Assembly (NCBI GenBank): GCA_902492325.1
Contig: CABULC010000005.1
Coordinates: 6,162-70,161, forward strand
Source: an uncultured Clostridium sp.
GTDB lineage: Bacteria > Bacillota_I > Bacilli_A > RF39 > UBA660
Length of the DNA stretch: 64,000 bases
Direction of reading: 5' to 3'
Positions 2,639-59,388 of this stretch are shown piece after piece. Numbering within the stretch: the first letter of the stretch is position 1; each line of letters opens with the position of its first letter. The translations under genes and the position numbers were made by a program. The notes beneath the pieces were generated by a model that saw nothing but the letters and a program-made list of their open reading frames with translations, was not told where the DNA came from and ran no database searches.

Positions 2639-3667
2639 ATGAAAAAAATATTTTTAGTTTTAGTAACTATATTTTTATTTAGTAAGTGTTATGCGATTGA
2701 ATATAAATATAGTGAATGGAGTCCTATTTATCCGGGGGAAGTAAAGGATAAGAAATTTATATTTGAAGAAGATAGGTATTTATGGTACAAAGAAGTAGAA
2801 AAGGATATTAAATATCTAAAACTTGAAGATATAGAAAGTGATATGTTGGTGCAGTATGAAGATTATAAATATATTAACTTTATAACACCAAAAGCACCAG
2901 AAAAATATAAAGAAAGGATTATTACGTCTAATTTTGAAGATTATACATTTAAAAATGAAGATATAACAGGTTTAGTATTAAATGAGATAGAAGACCTAAA
3001 TATATCAAAAATAGAAATCTTTGATAATAATAAAAAAATAAATTATAATACTAATCTTAAATCTTTAATAAATGGTAATGAGTTTATAAATTATAAAAAT
3101 AAAAATCTTAAATTATTTTTTGATGGATTTAATGAATCATTTAATATAGTTATTCATTATAAAAGTAGTGATGATGTTAGTGCATTAATATCATATAAAT
3201 CATGTGATAAATATAATGTTTATAGTAAGAAGTTTACTTTTAAGAAGTGTGATGATTGTGAGTTAAAACTATCTTTAAAAGATTTTAAATCATATGTTAA
3301 TCAATATATGGAGATATATAAAGTAACTGATAAAGTGTATAAAACATATAAGATAGAAAGAGAATATGCAACTGATTATTATTCTAATTTAGATGGTTAT
3401 ATTAAAGATGAAAGTACACTTAAAAAATATTATAGATTTTTACTTAATGATTATATTATTGTTGATAATGATGGTAATTTAGTAGAAGATGGTAATTGTT
3501 TTAAAGAAACATGTTATATTAAATATCTAGATTATAAAGAAGAAATAGAGAATCCTAAAACAGGAGATAATATATATAAATATCTTACTAATAGTTCTAT
3601 ATTGTTAGTTATACTTGTACTTTTGATAAATAAAAAATCTAGTTTTGTCGAATCACAACATTCATAA
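2639..3667 (+). CDS. cell-wall-anchored surface protein with NPKTG sortase sorting signal
   Basis: N-terminal signal peptide (MKKIFLVLVTIFLFSKCYA). C-terminus ...ENPKTGDN + hydrophobic segment + KKS tail, a classic sortase sorting signal (NPKTG is a class-B sortase-type motif). Confidence 0.55.
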   Translation: MKKIFLVLVTIFLFSKCYAIEYKYSEWSPIYPGEVKDKKFIFEEDRYLWYKEVEKDIKYLKLEDIESDMLVQYEDYKYINFITPKAPEKYKERIITSNFEDYTFKNEDITGLVLNEIEDLNISKIEIFDNNKKINYNTNLKSLINGNEFINYKNKNLKLFFDGFNESFNIVIHYKSSDDVSALISYKSCDKYNVYSKKFTFKKCDDCELKLSLKDFKSYVNQYMEIYKVTDKVYKTYKIEREYATDYYSNLDGYIKDESTLKKYYRFLLNDYIIVDNDGNLVEDGNCFKETCYIKYLDYKEEIENPKTGDNIYKYLTNSSILLVILVLLINKKSSFVESQHS

Positions 3668-5410: not shown

Positions 5411-6664
5411 ATGAAAAATAGAAATGGTTTTACATTAGTTGAATTACTTGCAGTCATTGCAATTTTAGCAATACTTGTAATAATAGCGCTTCCTAATGTA
5501 ATAAATATGTACAATAAAGCGCAAAAAGAAACATTTTTAACAGAAGCAAAGAAAGTGTATAGTGAATCAGAAAAGAAGTTTATATCAAATTCTATAAGTA
5601 ACAAGCAAACAAAAATTATAAATTCAGAAGATAGTACTAAACTTGATATGACAGGAAAAAAACTTCAATATTGTGTTATTCTAAATAATAGTGGAAAAGT
5701 AACTAGTATGAAGGTATCTAATGGTAAATGGATAGCAAGTTTAGATAATAACAAAACTGTTGATAAATTAACTATAGATGATTTAGAAGAAGGAAATTTA
5801 GATAACTATGAATGTGGTAGTCAATCAGTAGATTCTAATTCTTATAATTGTACTTTTAATGGAAATATGGTACAAGGTGCCGAATTTATTGATGGTAAAT
5901 ATACCTATAGATACATGCAAAAAGTAGGATATAATGTTACTGAAAAAGGAATTATAACTTGGGTTAATATATCAACTGATGGCTGGGGAGTTAGTCTTAC
6001 TGATAAAAATAGTACTGAAATGGTAAGCGGTAAAACATGCTCAACTATAAATAATATACCAATAGTTTCAATGTCTTATATGTTTTTTGATAGTAATGCT
6101 TCTACAGTTGATGTAAGTGAATTCGATACCAAAAATGTAGTTGATATGCAAGGAATGTTTGATGGCAGTCAAGCAACAGTAATAAATGGCTTTGAAAATT
6201 TTGATACTAGTAATGTTGCAAATATGAGAGATATGTTTTATGATAGTAAAGTAGTAACTTTTGATTTAAGTAGTTTTGATACAAGTAACGTAACTAATAT
6301 GAGGTATATGTTTTATAATAATAAAGCTTCAAAATTAGAATTAGCAAATTTTAATACTAAAAATGTAACTGATATGTCTGGTATGTTTTATCAAAGCGAA
6401 GCTTCTATAATTGATATAAGTGGTTTTGATACAAGTAATGTTACTGATATGAGTTATATGTTTGAGAATACTAAAAATCTTAAAACAATATATGCAAGTG
6501 ATAAATTTATAACTAACAAAGTTACTAGTAGCACTAATATGTTTTCTAGTTCGATTAATCTAGTTGGTGGTGCAGGTACTATATATAATAGTTCTAAAAC
6601 TGATAAAACATTTGCAAGAATAGATGGTGGAACATCAAGCCCAGGATATTTTACTAAAAAGTAA
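5411..6664 (+). CDS. prepilin-type N-terminal (class III signal) protein with DUF285/BspA-family repeats
   Basis: MKNRNG^FTLVELLAVIAILAILVI: short basic leader ending in Gly, Phe+1, Glu+5, hydrophobic helix (type IV pilin/pseudopilin signature). C-terminal half has ~24-aa repeats F(D/N)TSNVT(D/N)M..MF typical of DUF285 (BspA-type LRR surface proteins). RBS AGGTGA upstream. Confidence 0.75.
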   Translation: MKNRNGFTLVELLAVIAILAILVIIALPNVINMYNKAQKETFLTEAKKVYSESEKKFISNSISNKQTKIINSEDSTKLDMTGKKLQYCVILNNSGKVTSMKVSNGKWIASLDNNKTVDKLTIDDLEEGNLDNYECGSQSVDSNSYNCTFNGNMVQGAEFIDGKYTYRYMQKVGYNVTEKGIITWVNISTDGWGVSLTDKNSTEMVSGKTCSTINNIPIVSMSYMFFDSNASTVDVSEFDTKNVVDMQGMFDGSQATVINGFENFDTSNVANMRDMFYDSKVVTFDLSSFDTSNVTNMRYMFYNNKASKLELANFNTKNVTDMSGMFYQSEASIIDISGFDTSNVTDMSYMFENTKNLKTIYASDKFITNKVTSSTNMFSSSINLVGGAGTIYNSSKTDKTFARIDGGTSSPGYFTKK

Positions 6665-23864: not shown

Positions 23865-24383
23865 TTAGTGAATTACTTTATCAAGTTTAATATCATATTT
23901 ATCTATTGGCAACTTTTTGATAATTGTTTCTTTGTATGATAAACCAATAGTATAAATATTTTTATTTGATAAAAACTTATCATAATATCCTTTACCATAA
24001 CCAAGCCTGTAATTTTCTTTATCAAAACATAATCCTGGTACTATGCAAATAGAATTATCAAAGTTAGTAACTTTATTTGTAGTAATAGGTTCTAAAATAT
24101 TAAATGATCCTTTTGATAAGTCATTAAAAGAATCTATGTAGTAAAAATTCATTTCGTTACCATTAACTTTTGGCACAGCTACTTTTTTCTTACCTAAAAA
24201 ATACTTAATAATATTTAAAGTATCTACTTCATTATTAAAAGATACATATATTAAAATAGTATCTGCTTTTTTGACTTTTTCTAAACTAATTACTTTATTA
24301 AAAATAATTTCATTTTGAATATTTCTATCTTTTATATTATTTCTAATATATTTATAAATTTTTCTTAATTCATTTTTATTCAT
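23865..24383 (-). CDS. 5-formyltetrahydrofolate cyclo-ligase
   Basis: 172 aa. C-terminal GYGKGYYD motif and overall MTHFS pattern. Confidence 0.8.
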   Translation of the reverse strand: MNKNELRKIYKYIRNNIKDRNIQNEIIFNKVISLEKVKKADTILIYVSFNNEVDTLNIIKYFLGKKKVAVPKVNGNEMNFYYIDSFNDLSKGSFNILEPITTNKVTNFDNSICIVPGLCFDKENYRLGYGKGYYDKFLSNKNIYTIGLSYKETIIKKLPIDKYDIKLDKVIH

Positions 24384-24482
24384 AATATAATTGTATCATA
24401 CTTTATCTGTAAATATATTTTAAAAATATAGAAATAGATTATTAAATAGTGTATAATATTTTAATAGATGGAGGTATCGATA

Positions 24483-25313
24483 ATGATATATACAACTATA
24501 TTGAAAATAGCAGCTAAGATACTAGATATTGCTGTTGTGTGGTTCATGTTTTATGAATTATTAAAGTATTCTAGAAATAATTTTAAGTTAACATTAATAT
24601 TTAAGGGAGTAATAATAATAGTATTATTAAAGTTCTTGAGTGACTTTTTAAATTTAAATACTGTTGGTATTATACTTGAATATGTAATTTCTTGGGGACC
24701 TTTGGCGTTGATTATAATATTTCAACCAGAAATTAGAAATGCTCTTGAAAGTATTGGTAGAAGTCAATTACTTGGTAGACATAAGACATTAACAGTAGAT
24801 GAAAGAGAAAAAATGGTTTATGAAATAGTTAATGCTTTAGATTATTTAAAGAAAAATAAAATTGGAGCATTAATAGTTATTGAAAGAGATTATAGTTTAG
24901 CTCAATATATAGAACCAGCTACTAAGTTATATGCTGATATTACAAGTGAGTTATTAATATCTATATTCTGGAAGAATAATCCACTTCATGATGGTGGTGT
25001 TATTATTCAAGGTGATAAGATTACTTGTGCTGGAAGCGTATTCCCAACAAGTTCAAACCCTAATATTTCTAAGAGACTAGGTACTCGTCATAGAGCAGCT
25101 CTTGGAATAAGTGAAATTTCAGATTGTATTTCAGTAATAGTTAGTGAAGAGACTGGTAGAATATCAATCGCTATTCAAAGTGATTTACATTATAATTTAT
25201 CATTAGATGATGCTAGAATGTTACTATTAGAAGAGTTACAACCAAAGAAAGAAACATTCTATGAAGCTGATACTATAGAAAGCGAAGGTGATGAAGATGA
25301 AAAAAATGCTTAA
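24483..25313 (+). CDS. cdaA: diadenylate cyclase (c-di-AMP synthase)
   Basis: N-terminal TM helices then DAC domain with DGG/GTRHRAA motifs (HDGGVIIQ...LGTRHRAALG). GGAGG RBS 8 nt before ATG 24483. Confidence 0.9.
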   Translation: MIYTTILKIAAKILDIAVVWFMFYELLKYSRNNFKLTLIFKGVIIIVLLKFLSDFLNLNTVGIILEYVISWGPLALIIIFQPEIRNALESIGRSQLLGRHKTLTVDEREKMVYEIVNALDYLKKNKIGALIVIERDYSLAQYIEPATKLYADITSELLISIFWKNNPLHDGGVIIQGDKITCAGSVFPTSSNPNISKRLGTRHRAALGISEISDCISVIVSEETGRISIAIQSDLHYNLSLDDARMLLLEELQPKKETFYEADTIESEGDEDEKNA

Positions 25314-26670
25314 GAAAATAGGTAAGTTCTTCGCTAGATTATTTAAGATGTTATATAAAGTAATTGATGTTTTACTTGTAACACCAATATCTAAGGCAGT
25401 ATATTTTATAGGTGATAAATTCAGTAATAAAAATGGAAACTTAGATAAATTTTTAAATAAACCTAATACATTAATATATGTTTCATTGATTTGTGCGTTT
25501 GCTGCTTTCTTTGCAGTAGATAGAAAGGTTATTAATTTAGTTGAAACTGAAGCTATAGTTTTATCTAATCAACCTGTAGTTGCTGAATATAATGAAGAAG
25601 CATATGTAGTTGAGGGAATACCTGAAACTGCTGATATAGTGCTTATGGGTAGAAAGAGTGATTTATACTTAGCAGAACAATTAGGTGATCATAAATTAAC
25701 ACTTGATTTAACTGGTTTATCTGCTGGTACTCATAAAGTTAATATTAAATATAATAATCCAATTAAATCATTAGATTATAAAGTAGACCCATCAAGGGCT
25801 ACAATAGTTATATATCCTAAAGTTAGTGCTTCTCGTACAGTTACTACTGATATATTAAATAAAGATAAATTAGGAAGTACACTTGTAATAAGTTCTATTA
25901 AACTTGATAGAGATGAAGTAATTATTAAATCATATAAAGAAAAATTAGAGAAGGTTGCTAGTGTTAAAGCGTTAGTTGATGTTAATGCATTAAATGCTAA
26001 TAGTGCTGGTACATATACTTTAGAAAACGTTAAATTAATTGCTTATGATGAAAAAGGTACAGAAATTAAAGATATAGAAATAGTTCCAGGTACAATAACT
26101 GCTACTGTTGTAATATCAAGCCCAAGTAAGACTGTTCCGGTTAAAGTTGTTCCAGTTGGAGAAGTTGCTAGTGGAAGTGCTATTAGTTCAATAACTTCAA
26201 ATGTAACTACTGTAACATTATATGGTGAAGAAGATGTACTTAAAGATATTAGTGAAATAGAAGTAGAAATAGATGTAAATGGACTTAGCAAAGATAAGAC
26301 GTTCCAAGAAACAATAGTTAAACCTACTGGTGTTAGATCAATGTCTGATACGGCAGTAACTATTAAAGTTAAAATGGAAGGTGAAACATCTAAAGAGTTT
26401 AAAGATATACCAATTGTATTTGAACATTTAGATACAACTAAATATAAACCGCTTGCTAAGAATGCTAGTGATACTAAAGTAAATGTAGTTGTTAAAGGCG
26501 TTAAATCAGTACTTAATAAATTAGATTCTAAAGATATAAAAGCATATGTTGATTTATCAGATTTAGAGCCAGGTACATATGAAGTTCCAGTAATGGTAAC
26601 TGGAAACGACTTGAAGCTTACATATTCATCTAGAACTACTAAAATAGAAGTAATAATAGCTAAAAAGTAA
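25288..26670 (+). CDS. cdaR: CdaA regulatory protein CdaR (YbbR-domain protein)
   Basis: N-terminal membrane anchor plus repeated YbbR-like beta domains. Overlaps the 3' end of cdaA (canonical cdaA-cdaR arrangement). glmM does not follow. Confidence 0.8.
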   Translation: MMKMKKMLKKIGKFFARLFKMLYKVIDVLLVTPISKAVYFIGDKFSNKNGNLDKFLNKPNTLIYVSLICAFAAFFAVDRKVINLVETEAIVLSNQPVVAEYNEEAYVVEGIPETADIVLMGRKSDLYLAEQLGDHKLTLDLTGLSAGTHKVNIKYNNPIKSLDYKVDPSRATIVIYPKVSASRTVTTDILNKDKLGSTLVISSIKLDRDEVIIKSYKEKLEKVASVKALVDVNALNANSAGTYTLENVKLIAYDEKGTEIKDIEIVPGTITATVVISSPSKTVPVKVVPVGEVASGSAISSITSNVTTVTLYGEEDVLKDISEIEVEIDVNGLSKDKTFQETIVKPTGVRSMSDTAVTIKVKMEGETSKEFKDIPIVFEHLDTTKYKPLAKNASDTKVNVVVKGVKSVLNKLDSKDIKAYVDLSDLEPGTYEVPVMVTGNDLKLTYSSRTTKIEVIIAKK

Positions 26671-26728
26671 AGAGTAATCTTTACTTTTTTAATTGTAATA
26701 AAAAATTAGTATGATATAATTAAAATAG

Positions 26729-28507
26729 GTGAATGATGTGAAAAATAAAAATGGATTTTCTTTAATTGAATTGCTTGGAGTAATTGCGATAGTTGCAATT
26801 TTAACGTTAATGACTGTTCCTGCAGTTTTAGAAATATATAATAAGAATGTAATAAAGAGTATGCATATACAAGAAACTGAGATTAAAGATGCTGCTAATT
26901 TATTTGTAGAAGATTATTGTAAAACTTCAATTGATCAGACTAAGATTTGTCCTAAGAGTTATAGTACTGCAGTTAATAATAAGAAAACTGTTTGTCTTAA
27001 AGACCTTCAAAATAAATCAGATAAATATATTGATACGGTTAAATATAAAGGCTCTGATTGTAAATGATATGTTACATATTATTTAGATTCTGAAACTGGT
27101 GTCTATGGAAATGAAAAAACATATTTATTTTGTGGTAGGGGTGAAGACAATACTTATGCATATATGACTGATAGTAATTATGATCATAAAGAGTATTGTA
27201 AGTGTAGTGATGATGAGAAAATATGTGGTTCTTCTTATCCATTACTTTATAATGTTTTAAAAAATGAAGAAGAAAATGGCGGTTTAGTAAAAAAATATGA
27301 TGGTATTCATAATGATTCTTATAATGAAACTGGAAATAAAGATATATATTATTATAGAGCTGAAACAAATGATGATGTAAATAAAATATTAAATAAAAAT
27401 AATGTGCTATTTGGAAACTATTGTTGGCAAATAATAAGAACTACAGATATGGGTGGTGTTAGGTTATTATATAATGGTGAACCAAATGTTGTTGATGGAA
27501 AAAAACAATGTTATAATGATACAACAATTCGTTCAATTGGAAAATCAAAATTTAATGATGGGTATGATTCTATTGGCTATGTTGGTTATATGTATAATAA
27601 AAGTGAAACAGAAAAATACAAGTACACTTATAAAAAAATGATTGATGTTCAAGGGTCATCTTATACATTTAAATATTCTACTAGTTTTGATTATAAGAAT
27701 GGTGTATATACTTTAAAGGATGACATAAAAGAGATTAAGGCCGCTTATCCAGGCAATGTTAAAAATAGACATTATACTTGTTTAAGTGATTCTGAAACTT
27801 GTAAAAATGGAGAAATATATTATATTACTGGTTTTGAATATGATGGTGATGATTGGCATCTATACTATATAACATTGAAAAATGGAAATAGTGTTGAAGA
27901 TGCATTGAATTCTATGCTGTATAATGATGTTAATAAAGATGATTCATCAATAAAAAAATATATTGATAATTGGTTCGAACAAAAATTATTAAATTTTTCT
28001 GATTATTTAGAAGATAGTGTTTATTGTAATGATAGAACTATTATTGATTATAGTAATTGGGATTCTAAAAGTAATTGTACTTCTTTTGGTTCAGCTTACG
28101 AAACTTTAAAATTTAAAAATTATAATTTAAATAATGATCTTTATTGTACAAATATTACTGATAGATTTAGTGTTAATAATAATAAAGCTAAATTGAAATA
28201 TCCTATTGGATTAATTACTCTTCCTGAATTATATTTACTTAAAGACGGTTCCACATCTGCTCCTTATAGAGAAGGATTTTATACAATGTCTCCTTTAAGA
28301 TCCTTTAATTATAGTGAATTAGTTAATGGTTCGTTATTTGGTAACAATTATTTTCAGGCACCTAATAATTATTATTTAACTATAGGAAGTAGTGCGAGTA
28401 TAGAGACTTATGTACGTCCTGTTATAACACTTGCTTCTAATACTGAATATTTAAAAGGAGATGGAAGTTCTACTAATCCATATATTATTATTACTGATAA
28501 CAAATAA
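26729..28507 (+). pseudogene. prepilin-type N-terminal surface protein gene interrupted by an in-frame nonsense codon (TGA at 27065-27067)
   Basis: ORFs 26729-27067 and 27164-28507 are in the same frame. The first ~110 aa are ~75-80% identical to the N-terminus of the 53206 protein. At the stop position the paralogue has GGA (Gly, 53542-53544), so the change is GGA->TGA. Likely start is GTG 26738 (VKNKNG^FSLIELL) after AGGTGA. Confidence 0.7.
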
Positions 28508-28521
28508 TTTTAAAAAAGGGG

Positions 28522-28550
28522 TTTACATTTTAAAAATAATATTGTATAAT
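28522..28550 (+). promoter_or_regulatory. sigma-A type promoter of the rplJL operon
   Basis: -35 TTTACA (28522-28527), 17-bp spacer, extended -10 TGtTATAAT (28542-28550). Confidence 0.6.
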
Positions 28551-28556
28551 CTAATT

Positions 28557-28662
28557 CGTGAAGTGACCAAAGACAGTAAGTACAGAAGTAAATCTTACCG
28601 AGGAAACAATGAATAATGACGATTATTATGAGTTTCCTTGTCATGAGGAAACTTTTTAATTT
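28557..28662 (+). promoter_or_regulatory. ribosomal protein L10 leader (autoregulatory attenuator)
   Basis: Untranslated leader before rplJ. Terminator hairpin GAGTTTCCT-tgtcatg-AGGAAACT + TTTTT (28630-28660). Upstream GAGGAAAC (28600-28607) can alternatively pair with GTTTCCTT to form an anti-terminator. This matches the L10(L12)4-controlled attenuation leader of Firmicutes. Confidence 0.6.
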
Positions 28663-28677
28663 ATGAAAGGAGACTAT

Positions 28678-29181
28678 ATGGCAAGTAAAGAGATACTTAA
28701 ACAAAAAGAAGCTGTTGTAAAAGAAATAACTGAAAAATTAGATAATTCTAAAACATTCTTGTTATTAAATTATCAAGGTTTAACAGTTAGTGAATTTGCA
28801 GAGTTAAGAAGAAGTTTAAGAGAAGTTAATTCTGATGTAAAAATTTATAAAAATACTCTTATGAATATTGCATTAAATCAAAAGAATATTAAATTAAATG
28901 ATTACATGGAAGGACCAAATGCTTATCTTTTTGCTGATTCTATTATTGAACCAATCAAAGTTGTTAGTAAGTTTGCTAAAGAACATCCAGCTCTTGAAGT
29001 TAGAGTAGGATATATTGATTCAGAATTTGCTGATAGCAAAATCATTGCTGAATATGCAACTATTCCAAGTATGGAAGGATTACTTACAATGTTTGCTGGT
29101 GGCTTAATTGAACATGTAAGAAATTTAAGTATTGCATTAAATCTATATGCTGAAAAGTTAGAAGAAGGAGGAAATAATTAA
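28678..29181 (+). CDS. rplJ: 50S ribosomal protein L10
   Basis: Collinear with bacterial L10. AAAGGAG RBS before ATG 28678; the track ORF starts at an ATG that lies within the RBS. Confidence 0.93.
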
Positions 29182-29182
29182 T

Positions 29183-29554
29183 ATGGCAAAGATTGAAAAC
29201 AAAGAAATTATTGAAGCTTTAAAAGAAAAAACTATTCTTGAAGTTAAAGAATTACTAGATATGATGAAAGAAGAATTTGGTGTTGATCCAAGTGCTGTAG
29301 CTGTTGCTGCTGCTCCAGCTGCTGTTGAAGAAGACAATGCAGGAAGTGGAGTTAAGACTGTAGTATTAAAAGCTGCTGGTGCTCAAAAATTACAAGTTAT
29401 TAAAGTAATTAGAGAAGTTACTGGATTAGGTCTTAAAGAAGCTAAAGATATCGCTGATGCTGGTGGAAATGTTAAAGAAGGAATTCCTGCTAGTGAAGCT
29501 GAAGAATTAAAAGCTAAATTAGAAGAAGCTGGCGCTACTGTAGAATTAGCTTAA
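29183..29554 (+). CDS. rplL: 50S ribosomal protein L7/L12
   Basis: 123 aa. N-terminal dimerisation region, Ala/Pro hinge, C-terminal domain ([11 protein letters not shown]..., [15 protein letters not shown]). Confidence 0.95.
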
Positions 29555-29563
29555 TTTAACTAT

Positions 29564-29587
29564 GAGCCTTGTTAAAAGGCTTTTTTG
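29564..29587 (+). terminator. rho-independent terminator after rplL
   Basis: AGCCTT-gttaa-AAGGCT + TTTTTT. Confidence 0.6.
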
Positions 29588-29611
29588 CGTATATAAGAGA
29601 AGGAGAATTAT

Positions 29612-30199
29612 ATGAGTCATTATTTTGAAAATGATATGAACTTAAAGAGTGAAATTAGAGAATTAAGTTATAAATATGATTCTTCTTTTTTCACGTTTTA
29701 TAGCGATAATGGTGTGTTTAGTAAAAAGAATGTCGATTATGGAAGCAAATTATTATTAGAAACATATCTAAAAGAAAATATAACTAACGCAAATGTTCTT
29801 GATGTTGGTTGCGGTTATGGATTTATAGGAATAGTAATAAGTGTTCTTACAAATTCATATGTAGATATGGTTGATGTTAATAAAAGAGCTATCCATCTAA
29901 CAAATAGAAATATTAAACGTTATCCTAAGTTTAATGGAAGTGCATTTATAAGTGATGCATACTCAAATATTAAAAATAAATACAATGTAATTATTACTAA
30001 TCCGCCAATTAGAGTAGGTAAAACTAAATTATTAGAGATATTAGAAGGTGCTTTTGATCATTTAGATGAAGATGGGGTTTTGTACTTCGTTATTCGTAAA
30101 GATCAAGGAGCTTTATCAATAAAGAAGATTCTTGAAGAGCAAAGACAAGTAGAAATAATTAACAAAGATAAAGGATACTTTATATTTAAAGTAAAATAA
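29612..30199 (+). CDS. class I SAM-dependent methyltransferase (RsmC/YbxB-like rRNA methyltransferase)
   Basis: SAM motif I VLDVGCGYGFIG, motif IV ITNPPI. Same rplL-methyltransferase-rpoB position as B. subtilis ybxB. Confidence 0.75.
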   Translation: MSHYFENDMNLKSEIRELSYKYDSSFFTFYSDNGVFSKKNVDYGSKLLLETYLKENITNANVLDVGCGYGFIGIVISVLTNSYVDMVDVNKRAIHLTNRNIKRYPKFNGSAFISDAYSNIKNKYNVIITNPPIRVGKTKLLEILEGAFDHLDEDGVLYFVIRKDQGALSIKKILEEQRQVEIINKDKGYFIFKVK

Positions 30200-30233
30200 T
30201 ATAAATTTGCTTGACATTTTTTATAAAAAATAA

Positions 30234-30263
30234 TTGACTTATTGAAATAGAGTGTGGTAAAAT
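30234..30263 (+). promoter_or_regulatory. putative sigma-A promoter upstream of rpoB
   Basis: -35 TTGACT (30234-30239), 18-bp spacer, extended -10 TGgTAAAAT (30255-30263). A second TTGACA lies at 30211. Confidence 0.4.
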
Positions 30264-30334
30264 TTTATATTGCAGTACATTTGTTTTATTTTTAAAATTT
30301 GTGTTCTTTAAAAATTTAGGATTGGGGTGAAATA

Positions 30335-33300
30335 GTGGCATACAAAACAGTAAAATTTGGTGACCATAGAGAAAGAAGAAGTTTCTCAACAAAGCGTAGT
30401 ACGCTAGAACTTTCTAATTTATTAGAAATTCAGAAAAGTTCATTTGACTTATTTTTAAAGGAAGGAATCAAGGAAGTATTTGAGGATATTTTTCCTGTTG
30501 AAAGTTTTTCAGGTTCATTATCACTAGAATTTGGTGATTATTATTTTGATGAGCCTAAATATTCTGTTAAAGAAAGTCGTGAAAGAAAAGTTACATATTC
30601 TGCACCTTTAAAAGTAAAAGCTAGATTATTTATTAATGAAACTGGTGAAGTTAAGGAACAAGAAGTATTCTTAGGTGATATGCCTTTAATGACTGATACT
30701 GGTTCATTCATAATTAATGGAGCAGAGAGAGTTATCAACTCACAACTTGTTATGGGACCATCTTGTTATTACAAGAATGAAGTAGATAAGAGTGGTAGAA
30801 ATATCATTACAAGTGAAGTAAGACCTAATAAAGGTACTTGGCTTGAATATGAACTTGATGCTAGAGGAATCTTATATGTAAGAATAGATAGAACTCGTAA
30901 AGTTCCTGTTACTACATTATTAAGAGCTTTAGGACTTTCAAGTGACGATGAAATTTTAGAATTATTTGGTCAAGATGAATATTTAATTAATACTTTAGAA
31001 AAAGATTCTACTAAGAATACTGATGAAGCATTAATTGAAATATATGAAAAATTAAGACCAGGTGAACCAGCAACATTAGACTCAGCTAAAAACCAATTAA
31101 TCGTTAGATTCTTTGATAAATTTAGATATGATTTAGGTAAAGTTGGTAGATATAAATTCAATAAAAAACTTAATGTATTAGATAGACTTCTTAATGCTAA
31201 AATAGCTCAAGATATCGAAATTGATGGAGAAGTTATTGTTAAAAAAGGTACAGTAATTACTAAAGATATTCTTGAAACTATTAAACCATATTTTAAAAAT
31301 GGCTATGGTGTAAAAGAAGTAACTATTAATGAAGAATTAGATACATACAATAAGATCCAAGAAGTTCTTGTATATTCTAATGATGAAGATGAAAAAGTTA
31401 TTAAGATTATAGGTAATGATCAAACTATTGATACTAAGAGATTAACTATATCTGATGTGTATGCATCACTATCATATTATATTTGTTTATTATATGGTAT
31501 TGGTAAGTATGATGAAATAGATCACTTAGGAAATAGACGTGTAAGACAAGTAGGAGAATTAATTCAAAATCAATTTAGAATTGGTATTGCACGTATGGAA
31601 AGACAAATTAGAGATAAGATGTCTACTCAAGAGATTGATGCTGTTACTCCAAAATCATTAATTAATATTAGACCAGTTACTGCTTCATTAAAAGAATTCT
31701 TTGGTAGCAGTCAACTTTCTAAATTCATGGATCAAATAAACCCATTATCAGAATTAAATGATAAACGTAGACTTAGTGCTTTAGGTCCAGGTGGTTTATC
31801 AAGAGATAGAGCTGGTATGGAAGTTCGTGATGTTAACCCATCTCACTATGGTAGAATTTGTCCTATCGAGACTCCAGAAGGTCAAAACATTGGACTTATT
31901 ACATCACTTGCTAGTTATGCTAGAATTAATGAATATGGATTTATAATGACTCCATATAGAAAAGTTGTTGATAATAAAATAACTGATGAAATAGTATATA
32001 TGACTGCTGATGAAGAAGAAGATTATTACATTAGTCAAGCTACAATTGATGTAGATGATAATGGTTATATTGCTTCTGAAACAGTTCCAGTTAGATATAA
32101 TAAAGATAATATGATCGTTCCTCGTGAGAAGGTAGATTATATAGATGTTTCACCATCACAAATCGTATCTGTTACAACAAGCATGATTCCATTTATGGAA
32201 CATGATGATGCTAACCGTACACTAATGGGTGCAAACATGCAAAGACAAGCTGTACCACTAATGATTACAGAAGCTCCTATTGTAGGAACTGGAGTAGAAG
32301 CTGCTATAGCTCGTGATTCTGGTTGCTCAGTAGTATGTGACTTAGATGGTGTAGTTGAATACGTTGATGCTAAAAAGATCATAGTTAAAGGTTTAGAAGA
32401 AAAACATACTTATGAACTAGTTAGTTATCAAAGAAGTAATAATGAAACTTGTTATAATCAAAGACCAATTGTTAAGAAAGGTGAACAAGTTCATAAAGGA
32501 GAAATAATTGCTGATGGACCTTCTACTGATAAAGGAGAAATAGGTTTAGGTAAAAACTTAGTTGTAGCATTCATGACTTATAATGGTTATAACTATGAAG
32601 ATGCAGTTATTCTAAATGAAAGAATAGTTCGTGATGATGTTCTTACATCAGTTCACATTGAAATGAAAGAAATAGAGTGCCGTGATACTAAACTTGGACC
32701 AGAAGAATTCACAAGAGATATTCCAAATATTAGTGAAGATGCTCGTAAGAATTTAGATGAAAATGGTATAGTAAGAATTGGTACTGAAATAAAAGAAAAT
32801 GATATTCTTGTTGGTAAAGTTACTCCTAAGGGAATGCAAGAATTATCAAGTGAAGAAAAATTATTACATGCAATCTTCGGTGAAAAGACTCGTGAAGTTC
32901 GTGATACATCACTTCGTGTTAGCCACGGATGTTCAGGAATTGTACACGACGTTCAAATATTCACTAAAGAAAACTCTGATGAACTTCCTGCTGGAGTTTC
33001 AAAAGTAGTTCGTGTATATATAGTTAAGAAGAGAAAGATTCAAGTTGGAGATAAGATGGCTGGACGTCACGGAAATAAAGGTGTTTGTTCATTAATTCTT
33101 CCTTCAGAAGATATGCCATATTTACCAGATGGTACTCCAGTAGATGTAATCTTAAACCCATTAGGTGTTCCTTCTCGTATGAACTTAGGACAAATCTTAG
33201 AGTTACACTTAGGTATGGCTGGTAAAAAGTTAGGTGTTCATTATGCTACACCAATATTCGATAGTGCTACTGAAAAAGATATTCAAGAAGAAGTAGCTGA

Positions 33301-47953: not shown

Positions 47954-48052
47954 TAAAAGTTTATAAAAGAGTTATTTAATATAACTTTTTTATTTTGTAA
48001 AAAGAAGTGTTTTTGAAATTTATGTCTAACTATAATAATAGGAGGCTATAAT

Positions 48053-48603
48053 ATGAAAGAAAATCAAATGTACTTAATAAACAAAATGTTTAATAGTGAA
48101 ACAATAAGAACTGTGTGGAATAGGGAGAAACAAAAGTATTATATTAGTGTTGTTGATATAGTTGCTGTTTTGGTAGAAAGCAAAGATCCTAGACATTATT
48201 GGAATGTTCTAAAATCAAGATTAAAACATGAAGGAAATCAGTCGGTCACAAATTGTGACCAACTGAAATTAAAATCATCAGATGGCAAATATTATAAAAC
48301 TGATGTAGTTGATATCGAAGGTATGTTTAGAATAATTGAATCAATTCCAAGTAAAAATGCAGAACCCATCAAATTATGGTTAGCAAGACTTGGAAGAGAA
48401 AGAATAGATGAAGTATTTGACCCATCAATAACTGTGCAAAGAGCAATAGATACATATAGAGTTAAAGGATATGATTAGGTGGTCATGCCTCTAAAGTTGC
48501 GCGTGAGGATATAGAAAAGAATTTAGGACAAAGTATTTTAAGTGTTGAAAATACTTTAGAATATGAATATACTCAGGATAAAGAGATGATTCAAAATAAA
48601 TAA
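48053..48603 (+). pseudogene. Bro-N/DinD-like (phage-related DNA-binding) gene remnant with internal deletion
   Basis: ORF 48053-48478 encodes a Bro-N/ORF6N-like N-terminal domain ending ...PSKNAEPIKLWLARLGRERIDEV...VKGYD. A -1 frame downstream (48478-48603) encodes GGHASKVAREDIEKNLGQSILSVEN, which resembles the C-terminal tail of full-length (~270 aa) family members. The middle of the gene appears to be missing. Confidence 0.4.
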
Positions 48604-49342: not shown

Positions 49343-50584
49343 ATGATTTTAAGTATATGTTCTAATCCTGAAGTGCTAGAAGTTATGAGAATTGTTAATA
49401 TGGCAATATTGATAATTAAAATAACTGTTCCAATATTATTAATAGTTATTGGTATGGTAACGTTAATGAATACAATTAAAGTTGGTAATGAAGATTTACT
49501 AGCTAAAGCTAAAAAACAACTTATTAATAATTGTATTGCAGCAATGATTATATTTTTAATACCAACTCTTGTTAGTGTAATAGTTAGAGTAAGTGATACT
49601 AATAATCAATACAGAGCTTGTTTAGATGCTGATGTAACAATGATAAATGATGCATATATATCAAGAGCTGAGAATTTAGTATCTAAAGCTGAAGAAGCAA
49701 AAACATACAATGATTATTATGCTGCTAAAAAAGCAGTAGATGGATTGAAAAATGAAAGTGATAGAGCTAGTTTTAGTTCAAGATTAAATGCTGTATATGA
49801 AATAATTAAGGCAGATATTGAAAAAAACAATAATAATGAAGATGAAAATAGTGGTGGCGTAGGTTCTAGTGATGATGGAAGCGGAAGTACTACGGGTAGT
49901 AATTTAAATGTTAGTGCTGGTTCATCTGAATATACTGGAGTAGGAAGTATTACTAAATATACTTTGTTTGTTCCAAAAAATGCCAAAGAAAATATGCCAT
50001 TGATAGTTATGTTACCTGCTAGTAACGGGGACTATAGTGCTGCTGTTAATGAATTTAAAAATATGAAACTTGAAAATGATTTAGCATTTATGATGGTTGT
50101 TTATCCTAGTGGTAACTATTCTTCACAAGCATATAGCGATATTAAAACTACAGCTGATGAAGTTGTTAATAAATATAAAATAAACAAAAATAAAATTGGT
50201 GCTTCTGGATTTAGTTCTAGTGGGACATATGTGTATCATTTAGTTGTGAATAATCAAGGTTATTTTCATAGTATGGTTCCTATAAGTTCAGGAGTAAGTT
50301 CATCGGATAAAATTTTAAAAGATAACTTAGATTATTTAAAAACATTAAATATTAAAGGTTATGGTGAAAATGGTGGAGCATATGATTCTAATGGTAAAAA
50401 ATGTGCTGGATGGACTAATTGGTCACCATCTAATTCAATGACAAGTGCATTTAATGCTTTAGGCAAATCAAATAATTTTGTTAATCTTGGAAAGATATGC
50501 CATAGTAATGTTAGAAGTTATGTTTTTAATTTAGATGAAAATAATAATAATCGTTCTGATTATATAGAATGGTTTACTAAATAG
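49343..50584 (+). CDS. membrane-anchored modular protein: shared N-terminal 2-TM/coiled-coil module plus alpha/beta-hydrolase(esterase)-like C-terminal domain
   Basis: 413 aa. First ~185 aa are nearly identical to the 58300 protein. Gly/Ser/Asp-rich linker. C-terminal ...LIVMLPASNG...IGASGFSSSG... suggests an esterase fold (weak). Confidence 0.5.
   Translation: MILSICSNPEVLEVMRIVNMAILIIKITVPILLIVIGMVTLMNTIKVGNEDLLAKAKKQLINNCIAAMIIFLIPTLVSVIVRVSDTNNQYRACLDADVTMINDAYISRAENLVSKAEEAKTYNDYYAAKKAVDGLKNESDRASFSSRLNAVYEIIKADIEKNNNNEDENSGGVGSSDDGSGSTTGSNLNVSAGSSEYTGVGSITKYTLFVPKNAKENMPLIVMLPASNGDYSAAVNEFKNMKLENDLAFMMVVYPSGNYSSQAYSDIKTTADEVVNKYKINKNKIGASGFSSSGTYVYHLVVNNQGYFHSMVPISSGVSSSDKILKDNLDYLKTLNIKGYGENGGAYDSNGKKCAGWTNWSPSNSMTSAFNALGKSNNFVNLGKICHSNVRSYVFNLDENNNNRSDYIEWFTK
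49360..49891 (+). repeat. dispersed repeat copy 1 (~530 bp, ~99% identical to 58318-58850)
   Basis: Direct comparison of the two 5' gene segments shows only ~8 mismatches over ~530 bp. Confidence 0.85.
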
Positions 50585-53160: not shown

Positions 53161-53214
53161 TTTACCTTTTTATTTTGCTTAGCAACGTGTTATAATTCAT
53201 AATAGGTGAAGCAT

Positions 53215-55113
53215 ATGAAAAATAAAAATGGATTTTCTTTAATTGAATTGCTTGGAGTAATTGCGATAGTTGCAATTCTTACTTTAATGGTTGTACCAGC
53301 TGCTATTAAAACCTATAATGAAAATGTTATTAAAGCAATGCATGTACAAGAAAATGAAATGAAGGAAGCGGCAAATTTATTTGTAGAAGACTATTGTAAG
53401 AATTCAATTGATCAAACTAAGATTTGTCCTAAGAGTTATAGTACTGCAGTTAATAATAAGAAAACAGTATGTCTTCAAGATCTTCAAAAGAGTAGTGATA
53501 AATATATAGATGGTATTAAATATAAGGGTTCTGATTGTAAAGGATATGTTACTTATTATTTAGATTCTGAAACTGGTGTGTATGGTAATGAAAAAGCATA
53601 TTTATTTTGTGGATTAAATGAAGATGGTTCTTTTGATTATGCTACAAGTAAAGATTATGATTATAAAGAATATTGTAGTTGTAGTGATGATGAAATATGT
53701 AAGGAGAAAACTGAAAGAGTTTATTGTAAATTTGATGGTGACTTGAAACAAGGCGCTGAGTATGTCAATGGTCAATATACTTATAGATATAAACAAGCTG
53801 GTGTTAGAAGTGATGATGATCTTGCATGGAATAATTTTTCAAAAGATGGATGGGGAGTACAACTTACAGATAAAACTAGTACTGAACCAGTAACTAGTAA
53901 AGTATGTACATATATAAATGATAAACCAGTTATCGCTATGTCTAATATGTATAGTGATAGTAAGGCTACAAGTATAGATTTAAGTAGTTTAAATACAGCA
54001 AAAGTTGATAATATGAGTTATATGTTTGCATCTAGTGCTGCAACTGATTTAGATGTTAGTTTCTTTAATACAAGTAATGTAACTCTTATACATAGTATGT
54101 TTAATGGAAGTAAAACAACTACTTTAGATGTAAGCGGATTTGATACAAGTAAAGTAACAAATATGGGTAATATGTTTAGAGGTGTTTTAGTTGAAACCTT
54201 AGATTTAAATAATTTTAATACTTCTAATGTTATATATATGGATAACATGTTCTTTGGAAGTAAAATGATTTCATTAGATCTTTCAAGTTTCAACACTTCT
54301 AATGTAACGACTATGTATGGAATGTTTTGGGGTTCATCAGCGACTGATTTAAATCTTAAGAGTTTTGATACAAGCAAGGTTAAATCAATGTCATTTATGT
54401 TTAGAGGTGCTTTAGCTGAAAATTTAGATTTGAATAATTTTAATACAAGTAATGTCGCTGATATGGGGGGAATGTTTGAAGGTGCTAAAGCTAAAACATT
54501 GGATTTGAGTAATTTTAATACTTCAAAAGTTAAAAATATGTATTTAATGTTTGATGGCGCTGAAGCAGAGAATTTAGATTTAACAAGTTTTGATACAAGT
54601 AATGTAACTGATATGAGTTCTATGTTTAGATTTTCAAAAGCTAAAAAAATAGATGTTTCAAGTTTTGATACAAGTAATGTAACTAGTATGTTTCTTACAT
54701 TTGCTCAATGTTCTGCGACTGAGGTTGATGTTAGCAAGTTCAATACTAGTAATGTTAAAAATATGGGAAGTATGTTTCATTCAAGCAATATAATCAATTT
54801 GGATGTAAGCAACTTTGATACAAGTAATGTTACTAATATGGCGTCAATGTTCTATTATAGTAAGTCAAAAACTTTAGATGTTAGTAAATTTAATACTGAA
54901 AAGGTTACTGATATGAGCGCGATGTTTCAAGGAAGCAATGCAGAATTATTAGATTTAAGTAATTTTAATATTGATAATGTAACTAATATGAATATAATGT
55001 TTAGTGCAGCTAAAGCAACTACTGGATATGCAAAAGATGATCCAACTGCAGCTAAGTTTAATGACAGTAGTGTTACTAAAATACCAAGTACACTTAAATT
55101 TACTGTTAAATAA
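53215..55113 (+). CDS. prepilin-type N-terminal protein with pilin-like Cys-containing domain and DUF285/BspA-family repeat array
   Basis: MKNKNG^FSLIELLGVIAIVAILTL (class III signal). ~130-aa N-terminal domain shared with the 26729 pseudogene. Then ~15 tandem ~24-aa F(D/N)TS(N/K)V..M..MF repeats. AGGTGA before ATG 53215; the track start is GTG 53206. Confidence 0.8.
   Translation: MKNKNGFSLIELLGVIAIVAILTLMVVPAAIKTYNENVIKAMHVQENEMKEAANLFVEDYCKNSIDQTKICPKSYSTAVNNKKTVCLQDLQKSSDKYIDGIKYKGSDCKGYVTYYLDSETGVYGNEKAYLFCGLNEDGSFDYATSKDYDYKEYCSCSDDEICKEKTERVYCKFDGDLKQGAEYVNGQYTYRYKQAGVRSDDDLAWNNFSKDGWGVQLTDKTSTEPVTSKVCTYINDKPVIAMSNMYSDSKATSIDLSSLNTAKVDNMSYMFASSAATDLDVSFFNTSNVTLIHSMFNGSKTTTLDVSGFDTSKVTNMGNMFRGVLVETLDLNNFNTSNVIYMDNMFFGSKMISLDLSSFNTSNVTTMYGMFWGSSATDLNLKSFDTSKVKSMSFMFRGALAENLDLNNFNTSNVADMGGMFEGAKAKTLDLSNFNTSKVKNMYLMFDGAEAENLDLTSFDTSNVTDMSSMFRFSKAKKIDVSSFDTSNVTSMFLTFAQCSATEVDVSKFNTSNVKNMGSMFHSSNIINLDVSNFDTSNVTNMASMFYYSKSKTLDVSKFNTEKVTDMSAMFQGSNAELLDLSNFNIDNVTNMNIMFSAAKATTGYAKDDPTAAKFNDSSVTKIPSTLKFTVK
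53221..53613 (+). repeat. dispersed repeat (~390 bp, ~85% identical to 26743-27135): pilin-like 5' module
   Basis: Nucleotide-level comparison of the 5' ends of the two prepilin-type genes. Confidence 0.75.
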
Positions 55114-58241: not shown

Positions 58242-58299
58242 GTATAGAATACTTATATTTTTTATGTTAAAATTTAATTATACGATAAGAGGTGTTAAT

Positions 58300-59388
58300 A
58301 TGTTAGTTATGTCTATATGTTCGGTTCCTGAAGTGTTGGAGGTTATGAGAATTGTTAATATGGCAATATTGATAATTAAAATAGCTGTTCCAATATTATT
58401 AATAGTTATTGGTATGGTAACGTTAATGAATACAATTAAAGTTGGTAATGAAGATTTACTAGCTAAAGCTAAAAAACAACTTATTAATAATTGTATTGCA
58501 GCAATGATTATATTTTTAATACCAACTCTTGTTAGTGTAATAGTTAGAGTAAGTGATACTAATAATCAATACAGAGCTTGTTTAGATGCTGATGTAACAA
58601 TGATAAATGATGCATATATATCAAGAGCTGAGAATTTAGTATCTAAAGCTGAAGAAGCAAAAACATACAATGATTATTATGCTGCTAAAAAAGCAGTAGA
58701 TGGATTGAAAAATGAAAGTGATAGAGCTAGTTTTAATTCAAGATTAAATGCTGTATATGAAACAATTAAAGCAGATATTGAAAAAAACAATAATAATGAA
58801 GATGGAAATAGTGGTGACGTAGGTTCTAGTGATGATGGAAGCGGAAGTACAGTCACAAGTGGTGGAGTTAAAAATGTTTCTGGAACTATTTATATGGGTG
58901 ACTCTAGAACTAATGGATTAAAATTATATGGTGATTTATCATCTGATGAGCAAGTATTTGCGACTGATGGTGGAGGATATAATGAATTTCTTGGACATAT
59001 AACTAGTGTTAACAATGTTTTGAGTGATGGTAAAAGCTATAATATAGTACTTAATTATGGTGTTAATGATTTAAGTAATTCATCTAAATATTGTGAAAAA
59101 TATAAATCATTTATAAACGATGTTAATTCTAAAAACAATGTATATGTAATGTCTGTAAATCCAGTTAATGATAGTGGAAGTAAATATGCTAAAAATTCTA
59201 GTATAGAATCATTTAATTCTTCTATTAAATCTTGTATTTCTGGACTTAAGAATGTAAAATATTGTGATGTATATGGAAGTGCATCAATAAGTGATTGGAC
59301 AAGTAAATATATAAGTAGTGATGCAATACATTATACAAGTGATGGATATAAATACATACATTCTAAAATAAAGTCATGTATGGGATAG
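58300..59388 (+). CDS. membrane-anchored modular protein: shared N-terminal module plus SGNH/GDSL hydrolase domain
   Basis: N-terminal ~185 aa almost identical to the 49343 protein. C-terminal SGNH blocks: block I IYMGDSRTNG, block V DAIHYTSDGY. GAGGTG RBS before ATG 58300; the track start is 58264. Confidence 0.65.
   Translation: MLVMSICSVPEVLEVMRIVNMAILIIKIAVPILLIVIGMVTLMNTIKVGNEDLLAKAKKQLINNCIAAMIIFLIPTLVSVIVRVSDTNNQYRACLDADVTMINDAYISRAENLVSKAEEAKTYNDYYAAKKAVDGLKNESDRASFNSRLNAVYETIKADIEKNNNNEDGNSGDVGSSDDGSGSTVTSGGVKNVSGTIYMGDSRTNGLKLYGDLSSDEQVFATDGGGYNEFLGHITSVNNVLSDGKSYNIVLNYGVNDLSNSSKYCEKYKSFINDVNSKNNVYVMSVNPVNDSGSKYAKNSSIESFNSSIKSCISGLKNVKYCDVYGSASISDWTSKYISSDAIHYTSDGYKYIHSKIKSCMG
58318..58850 (+). 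repeat. dispersed repeat copy 2 (~530 bp, ~99% identical to 49360-49891)
   Basis: See copy 1. Confidence 0.85.

Follow-up and report, generated by a model that had tools for sequence, protein, structure and literature searches.

In Neisseria, a single pilin expression locus (pilE) receives variable C-terminal segments from silent promoterless cassettes (pilS). Modular pilins are a second kind of pilin system, described in Streptococcus sanguinis, in which PilB combines a pilin with a vWA domain and PilC combines a pilin with a lectin (PMC8179133, PMC9934059). Such pilins are thought to explain many functions of simple type IV filaments, and work on them covers very few organisms. The combination of a pilin with DUF285 (IPR012902-IPR005046) is already listed among the 264 architectures of Dataset S1 in PMC8179133. 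PARCEL/DUF285 repeats as such are known from Mollicutes surface proteins, LppQ for example, and have been described as a module spread horizontally over assorted membrane-targeting sequences (PMC2996958, in whose main text the word 'pilin' is absent). Finally, DUF6273 has been described as a C-type-lectin-like domain of phage receptor-binding proteins (PMC10743442) and as the domain at the N-terminus of an IgA protease from a gut bacterium (PMC12402451).

The uncultured human-gut Bacilli considered here offer a compact natural example of the modular pilin, with one carrier, at least ten head types, measurable gene conversion and repeated inactivation. We analysed a 64-kb stretch of DNA from one such genome, referred to below as the window. 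It contains three prepilin-type sequences, loci A, B and C, every one of them a full gene (Table 1).

Results

Two genes share a pilin module and carry unrelated heads

An earlier note on this DNA had paired the segment 26743-27135 with 53221-53613 at about 85% nucleotide identity. Ungapped alignment over 393 nt yields 85.8% identity at an offset of 26477, compared with a mean of 30.8% (sd 2.7, maximum 39.1) for random ungapped pairs of similar length drawn from the same window, which has a GC content of 26.7%. The neighbouring offsets 26476 and 26478 give only 31-32%. The first interval is exact and the second is shifted by a single nucleotide, its correct limits being 53220-53612. An independent repeat search recovered the A/B pair as family D5 (84% over 300 nt), and blastn aligned the two loci at 83.6% over 513 nt. 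Extended to its limits, the shared block runs from 26711 to 27226 and from 53188 to 53703 and comprises the -10 element, the ribosome-binding site and 163 codons. Its 5' edge lies about 27 nt upstream of both start codons, with the TATAAT -10 and the AGGTGA ribosome-binding site included, and its 3' edge falls at codon 163, in ...KEYC(K/S)C.DDE. Outside these edges A and B are 38% identical over the next 300 nt downstream and 31% identical over the 300 nt upstream. The two loci are direct repeats about 26 kb apart (26.5 kb), and between them lie rplJ, rplL, rpoB and rpoC, confirmed with Pfam, and an ffh-like gene recognised by eye.

Both genes indeed encode the same leader and pilin-like domain, and the peptides that the earlier note quoted are found in each. 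Alignment disposes of the counter-case that it had raised, namely a similarity confined to the 25-residue signal peptide, with 163 codons and the promoter -10 and ribosome-binding site being shared. Two of its boundaries need correction. Divergence was placed after about 130 residues, and similarity actually continues to codon 163; the sequence beginning at 27164 was taken for a gene of its own, and it is the tail of a longer frame broken by a TGA codon.

Table 1. Coordinates of the pilin loci, their signals and their heads in the window.
Feature	Position	Strand	Basis or remark
Locus A promoter-like site, TTGTAA-16 nt-TATAAT, TG extension	26693..26720	+	Promoter scan; -10 inside the shared block
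Locus A RBS AGGTGA (26727-26732), probable start GTG (26738)	26727..26740	+	Aligned to ATG 53215
Locus A pilin module, codons 1-163	26738..27226	+	Leader (M/V)KNKNG, linker end KEYCKCSDDE
In-frame TGA, codon 110 of locus A	27065..27067	+	GGA (Gly) in locus B; Gly in every relative
Locus A head, ectodomain of about 425 aa, no Pfam family, in frame with the module	27227..28507	+	Pfam scan, homolog search
A7 homopolymer in the locus A head	27289..27295	+	Orthologous tract is A8 in L008, shifting the frame
Locus B extended -10 TG-T-TATAAT (53188-53196), RBS AGGTGA (53204-53209), ATG (53215)	53188..53217	+	Read from the sequence
Locus B pilin module, codons 1-163	53215..53703	+	About 82% nt identical to locus A, patchy
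Locus B head, lead-in of about 70 aa, then DUF285/PARCEL repeats of 75-nt period	53704..55113	+	PF03382, TIGR02167
Locus C, third prepilin-type gene, MKNRNG/FTLVELL	5411..6664	+	Pfam/TIGR scan

The prepilin leader of A and B reads MKNKNG followed by FSLIELLGVIAIVAILTLM (MKNKNG/FSLIELL), and that of C reads MKNRNG followed by FTLVELL. All three genes encode the class III signal peptide of type IV pilins: PF07963 (N_methyl) scores 26.3, 28.6 and 33.4 bits in A, B and C, respectively (cutoff 21.2), TIGR02532 exceeds its cutoff in each, and G-1, F+1 and E+5 are invariant across all homologs. In locus A the mature N-terminus, FSLIELLGVIAIVAILTLM, is followed by a globular part with conserved cysteines and by a Cys-rich linker. 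The GTG start given for locus A was also chosen by the gene callers on public contigs (109-aa product). The consensus promoter scan passed over the site at locus B, the -35 of which is weak.

A fold model was computed with AlphaFold for P0026, an intact 589-aa ortholog of locus A whose module is 74-87% identical to that of window A per 90-nt block, using an 84-sequence alignment (mean pLDDT 83.7, pTM 0.76). The model consists of a 53-residue helix (9-61), a four-stranded sheet within residues 82-143 (strands 82-86, 108-117, 122-134 and 140-143), a linker at about 144-170 and a large head predicted with confidence (170-589). The shared block is thereby predicted to encode a type IV pilin fold, that is, an alpha-1 helix packed with an antiparallel sheet. 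A sequence-profile search of the PDB gave weak matches, all of them to alpha-1 regions of pilins (best E 6e-4), and a Foldseek comparison of the whole P0026 model with solved pilins returned no significant match. Type IV filament machinery (ATPase, platform protein, prepilin peptidase) did not turn up in the 64-kb window or in about 170 kb of related loci, nor did an obvious major pilin, so the incorporation of A, B and C into a type IV filament is an inference.

Used alone as the query of an exhaustive profile search, the module retrieved 210 clusters at E<=1e-10. The best 150 of these 210 are mostly stand-alone pilins of 135-200 aa, together with 38 long proteins of 347-1461 aa. The latter bear Listeria-Bacteroides repeats (Flg_new, 12), DUF285 (8), Gly_rich_2 (4), Flagellin_N (3), Dockerin (2), DUF6273 (2), a BspA-type LRR (LRR_5, 1) and other heads. 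Judged by these sequences, the module is a general carrier that appears with at least ten other head types in public data. In two relatives (L012:6001-7851 and L018:147-1316) a module of this family is fused to a segment matching the N-terminal helical region of flagellin (PF00669; E=3e-14 for the L012 segment), a pilin-flagellin chimera seen in 3 of the 38 long module proteins; a second prepilin-type gene starts near position 7916 of L012.

Intact orthologs of locus A are 589-592 aa long. Their head belongs to an unnamed family of 1177 hits, typically 570-710 aa, whose members carry at the N-terminus a prepilin leader, a TasA/camelysin-like sequence or an ordinary signal peptide, those of the last group ending in C-terminal InlB-B repeats and a TM anchor. 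Since it also occurs on non-pilin scaffolds, head A is a portable ectodomain. PF19789 (DUF6273) covers the distal head in 9 of 84 family members and reached no threshold in head A of the window and its closest orthologs, and Foldseek comparison of head A with the PDB and BFVD gave nothing significant. Head A is a beta-rich ectodomain and, by analogy, most likely a ligand-binding (adhesin) one, which makes this family of 1177 hits a candidate adhesin domain. One family member, P0034 (587 aa), apparently contains two tandem head copies and has no recognisable N-terminal anchor.

The gene at locus B spans 53215-55113. Its lead-in, CKFDGDLKQGAEYVNGQYTYRY...GWGVQLTDK, precedes repeats that match PF03382 at E=9.5e-101 and TIGR02167 at E=1.3e-77 in 13 stretches; neither profile matches locus A. 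Locus C has a pilin globular domain unrelated to the A/B module, joined to a lead-in and PARCEL head of the same type as in B (PARCEL/DUF285 match, E=1.3e-34). Both B and C display the tandem repeats of about 25 residues that define PARCEL proteins, visible in the DNA as 75-nt repeat families. Thus the window holds three combinations: module 1 with head A, module 1 with head B, and module 2 with head B. Head B, too, is by analogy most likely a ligand-binding (adhesin) module. A and B are both modular pilins in the sense of PMC8179133, B by virtue of its DUF285/PARCEL domain and A by virtue of a head that recurs on scaffolds other than pilins.

A second pair of the same design is present in the window at 49343-50584 and 58264-59388 (repeat D4, 49354-49653 versus 58314-58613), with 98% DNA identity over 300 nt and an N-terminal part shared to about residue 190 as judged by eye. 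This part comprises two TM helices, matched weakly and below threshold by T4SS_pilin, together with a helical region; the C-terminal domains differ, one being a GDSL-like lipase and the other having no assignment. A relative of this pair, L001:717-1838, carries a Peptidase_C39-like head. Elsewhere in the window, a 55-nt block ending in AGGAGG (2586-2640 versus 47998-48052, 87% identical) directly precedes the unrelated genes 2639-3667 and 48053-48478, possibly as a promoter/leader cassette common to both.

Relatives occupy several chromosomal sites

A scan of species-representative genomes yielded 12 module-bearing loci in seven uncultured gut genomes, labelled Bacilli bacterium, Mollicutes bacterium or Clostridium sp. 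CAG:524, and exact-protein look-ups added two further loci. The module-bearing genes are solitary or paired among housekeeping genes. In 7/7 genomes where head A was found, the window counted, it is flanked by cdaR and rplJ. PARCEL-headed genes with the A/B module occupy at least three sites, namely between ATPase and ASCH genes (window, L002 and L004), after an ABC transporter and beside arcA (L007 and L009), and downstream of valS (L001 and L018). A more distant genome, L011, has a headless pilin of 168 aa at the valS site; in L018 this site is occupied by a flagellin-headed pilin and, behind it, a B-type gene that hardly differs from window B. In most genomes the flanking proteins are 95-100% identical to those of the window, and head A is 68-72% identical. 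The closest intact ortholog of window A, in L019, sits in a background 97% identical to the window and matches window A at 68-87% over codons 1-300 and at 90-100% over codons 301-590.

In L003 an extra prepilin-type gene (L003:4727-about 5990) lies between cdaR and the A-type gene. Inspected by eye, its C-terminus resembles a Hint/intein-type autoprocessing domain (CFVAGTKV...VLVHN) with a short tail.

Gene conversion within the module

Identity between A and B is distributed unevenly along the module, amounting to 94.7, 68.0, 90.8, 76.7, 92.8 and 67.8% in successive blocks, and the first three blocks of A match its ortholog in L003 at 70.8, 96.0 and 85.0%. Locus A is thus nearest to its paralog B in codons 1-25 and 51-90, and nearest to L003 (96%) in codons 26-50. 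Informative sites in the A/B/L003 triplet fall into runs: 17 that are paralog-like, then 26 of which 25 are ortholog-like, then 12 that are again paralog-like. For this triplet the max-chi2 permutation test returns p=0/1000; a PHI-like test applied to 12 sequences returns p=1/2000. Differences that are only synonymous are patchy as well, affecting 2 of 25 codons in block 1-25 and 8 of 25 in block 26-50. In addition, A and B share the derived states FSLIELLGVIAIVAIL and STAVNN, which are absent from the orthologs of A.

Exchange also reaches genes with different heads. In the linker block, the B-type gene of L002 (HGM10772) agrees at 90-91% with A-type genes from three other genomes and at only 70% with the B-type genes of the window (WIN_B) and L001. 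The promoter and GTG start of window A correspond to those of the additional pilin gene on the cdaR side in L003 and not to those of the L003 A gene, which would fit a past deletion between tandem pilin genes. Conversion tracts seen in the window genome stay inside the module. These comparisons demonstrate that the module is a recombination substrate and that heads and linkers have been re-assorted over evolutionary time.

Interruption of locus A and of its relatives

Positions 26738-28507 constitute one reading frame, interrupted once, by the TGA at codon 110, over which all homologs read CKGYVTYY. The 447-aa ORF that follows at 27164 has no signal peptide of its own, and inspection by eye revealed no Shine-Dalgarno-like sequence upstream of its ATG. 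Its exact product occurs on 6 public contigs from at least three samples, and TGT AAA TGA TAT is present in 3/3 contigs fetched; the split allele is therefore not an assembly error, being reproduced in at least three independent assemblies or samples. Because the TGA falls in strand 108-117 of the P0026 model, the 109-aa product would lack the last three strands of the sheet. Locus A has here the character of a pseudogene, apparently produced by a GGA-to-TGA nonsense mutation within the predicted pilin fold, so that of the two heads only B can be full length in this genome, setting aside possible low-level readthrough of the UGA in A. Annotation should treat the 109-aa and 447-aa ORFs as two pieces of one disrupted pilin gene.

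One of the public contigs, L014 (ERZ27256516 k119_131236), aligns with window positions 24164-31032 at 96.9% over 6.9 kb (175 mismatches, 30 gap openings). Its locus A gene, TGA included, is identical to that of the window despite the regional divergence of about 3%, which suggests either recent sharing of the disrupted allele among strains or a very uneven distribution of divergence over the region.

Lesions of this kind recur. Among 17 distinct module-bearing genes, six are hit by a single lesion apiece, and no two of the lesions are alike: the TGA of window A, a TAA where module and head join in L001, a frameshift at the corresponding junction in L007, the loss of 4 bp in L004, an A7-to-A8 change in L008 that shifts the frame at the tract matching window 27289, and a 1-nt insertion outside any homopolymer at about codon 112 in L018. 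A change in homopolymer length, of the kind that switches phase-variable contingency genes, is seen in one of the six (L008), the other five being two point nonsense mutations, the 4-bp deletion, the 1-nt insertion and the L007 frameshift. The truncated product of L007 equals P0009, whose cluster numbers 26 sequences, compared with 9 for the intact form P0007. Wherever the sequence sufficed, the remaining frames are open for hundreds of codons, so the lesions look recent and independent. The two junction lesions (L001 and L007) leave a complete headless pilin. One may speculate that inactivation is driven by immune or phage pressure or by the cost of expression.

Discussion

The reading that we consider quite likely is that A and B are paralogous modular type IV pilins whose carriers have undergone gene conversion and that locus A has been inactivated by a nonsense mutation, the whole forming a fast-evolving adhesin family and not a programmed switch. 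In the carrier, a class III signal peptide leads into a hydrophobic alpha-1 helix, which is followed by a small Cys-bearing beta-sheet domain and a Cys-rich linker. If it behaves like the modular pilins already characterised, a prepilin peptidase would cut it and it would enter a type IV filament, displaying the C-terminal effector. Short-tract, non-reciprocal conversion, together with recombination of alleles between strains, would keep the carriers alike, plausibly because both must fit the same filament and machinery. The nonsense mutation silences locus A and leaves B and C producible at full length. Across relatives the same family undergoes repeated single-lesion knockouts, moves between chromosomal sites and swaps of linker and head segments.

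Three other explanations bear on parts of this reading. That the modules arose by simple duplication and divergence, with purifying selection alone making their similarity patchy, is highly improbable. The best-kept blocks (the N-terminus of alpha-1, the Cys core and codons 111-133) are conserved in all genomes too, as such a history would predict, and the block pattern of A/B identity could in part reflect uneven constraint; the switching of neighbours argues otherwise, however, as the sites at which locus A is nearer to its paralog or to its ortholog form runs with sharp edges (p<0.001), the derived states common to A and B are missing from the orthologs of A, and the patchiness extends to differences that are only synonymous. 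That locus A functions through recoding of TGA (as Gly under code 25, as Trp under code 4 or as selenocysteine) or through programmed readthrough strikes us as extremely improbable. The TGA does align with the Gly codon GGA of paralog B, UGA encodes Gly in some uncultured lineages, one relative is labelled 'Mollicutes bacterium' by NCBI, the remaining 480-codon frame is open and the allele is unchanged across several samples. Against this, TGA closes at least three ordinary genes of the window, no other long ORF in the window holds an in-frame TGA, Trp is written TGG 91 times, and rpoB and rpoC are intact under the standard code (table 11); selenocysteine is further opposed by a homologous residue that is Gly, not Cys. 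Five related genes bear lesions of other kinds, among them frameshifts and a TAA, so inactivation is a common theme of the family, which also speaks against recoding. To judge from its codon use, the window is read with the standard code, and TGA is a true stop in it.

The earlier note's picture of a constant stalk with a variable head describes the genes well, since the pilin module is shared and the downstream ectodomains are unrelated, and its proposal of a substrate for recombination holds insofar as the modules exchange tracts by gene conversion. A working head-switching system, the further step that it took, finds no such backing. Programmed switching, with the 5' module serving as a recombination site in the manner of pilE/pilS or a shufflon, is in our estimation very unlikely, even though recombination inside the module is real, linker alleles are common to different head types up to the junction, a nearly identical B-type gene adjoins a flagellin-like-headed pilin at valS in a close relative, and the promoter and GTG of window A fit a past tandem deletion. 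Each locus is a complete gene equipped with a promoter-like site, a ribosome-binding site and a start of its own, so neither is a silent cassette, and the window shows no promoterless donors arrayed around one expression locus. No recombinase or inverted repeat was recognised among the flanking ORFs, whose translations were read. Head A stays between cdaR and rplJ in every genome that has it, and the tracts observed in this genome are confined to the module. Moreover, the direct repeats flank rplJ, rplL, rpoB and rpoC, so that a crossover between them would delete essential genes and be lethal, and only non-reciprocal conversion is viable. The exchanges observed lie between species or strains and are therefore evolutionary events, not a switch.

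A broader proposal, which we regard as doubtful at present, is that the promoter and pilin-module block acts as a portable homology cassette through which solitary pilins exchange, gain, lose and relocate heads between sites and strains, frequent single-hit inactivation followed by reversion or replacement setting which tip adhesins are displayed. If true, this would amount to a population-level combinatorial adhesin system for the type IV filaments of commensals, operated by ordinary homologous recombination with no dedicated recombinase.

Set beside the described systems, the paralogous modular pilins of the window resemble those of S. sanguinis in that a short linker connects a pilin module, class III leader included, to a bulky domain without specificity for pilus biology, and in that several such pilins with different heads coexist in one organism. 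They differ from them in being paralogs with nearly the same carrier (about 82% at the nucleotide level), kept similar by gene conversion, and in being solitary genes scattered among housekeeping genes instead of lying in a pil operon; head A, furthermore, has no defined domain signature, and piliation and adhesion are putative in this lineage. Heads B and C share the PARCEL repeats of about 25 residues with LppQ-type proteins, but the mycoplasma proteins are anchored by a lipoprotein signal or TM segment, whereas here the anchor is a prepilin-type module. With the DUF6273 proteins (PMC10743442, PMC12402451) the connection is PF19789, found in 9 of 84 head A family members and 2 of 38 long module proteins; unlike those proteins, head A of the window falls below every PF19789 threshold and has no structural match.

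The resemblance to pilE/pilS of Neisseria lies in non-reciprocal conversion between dispersed pilin sequences, which gives rise to mosaic genes. In contrast to Neisseria, both partners here are complete genes of the expressed type, it is the conserved carrier that is converted, and the unrelated heads stay put. The modular pilin design and the pairing of a pilin with DUF285 are already known, and this case adds to a known kind; what is new is a gene-converted carrier shared by paralogs, an undescribed head family, solitary genes scattered over the chromosome and a high rate of single-hit inactivation.
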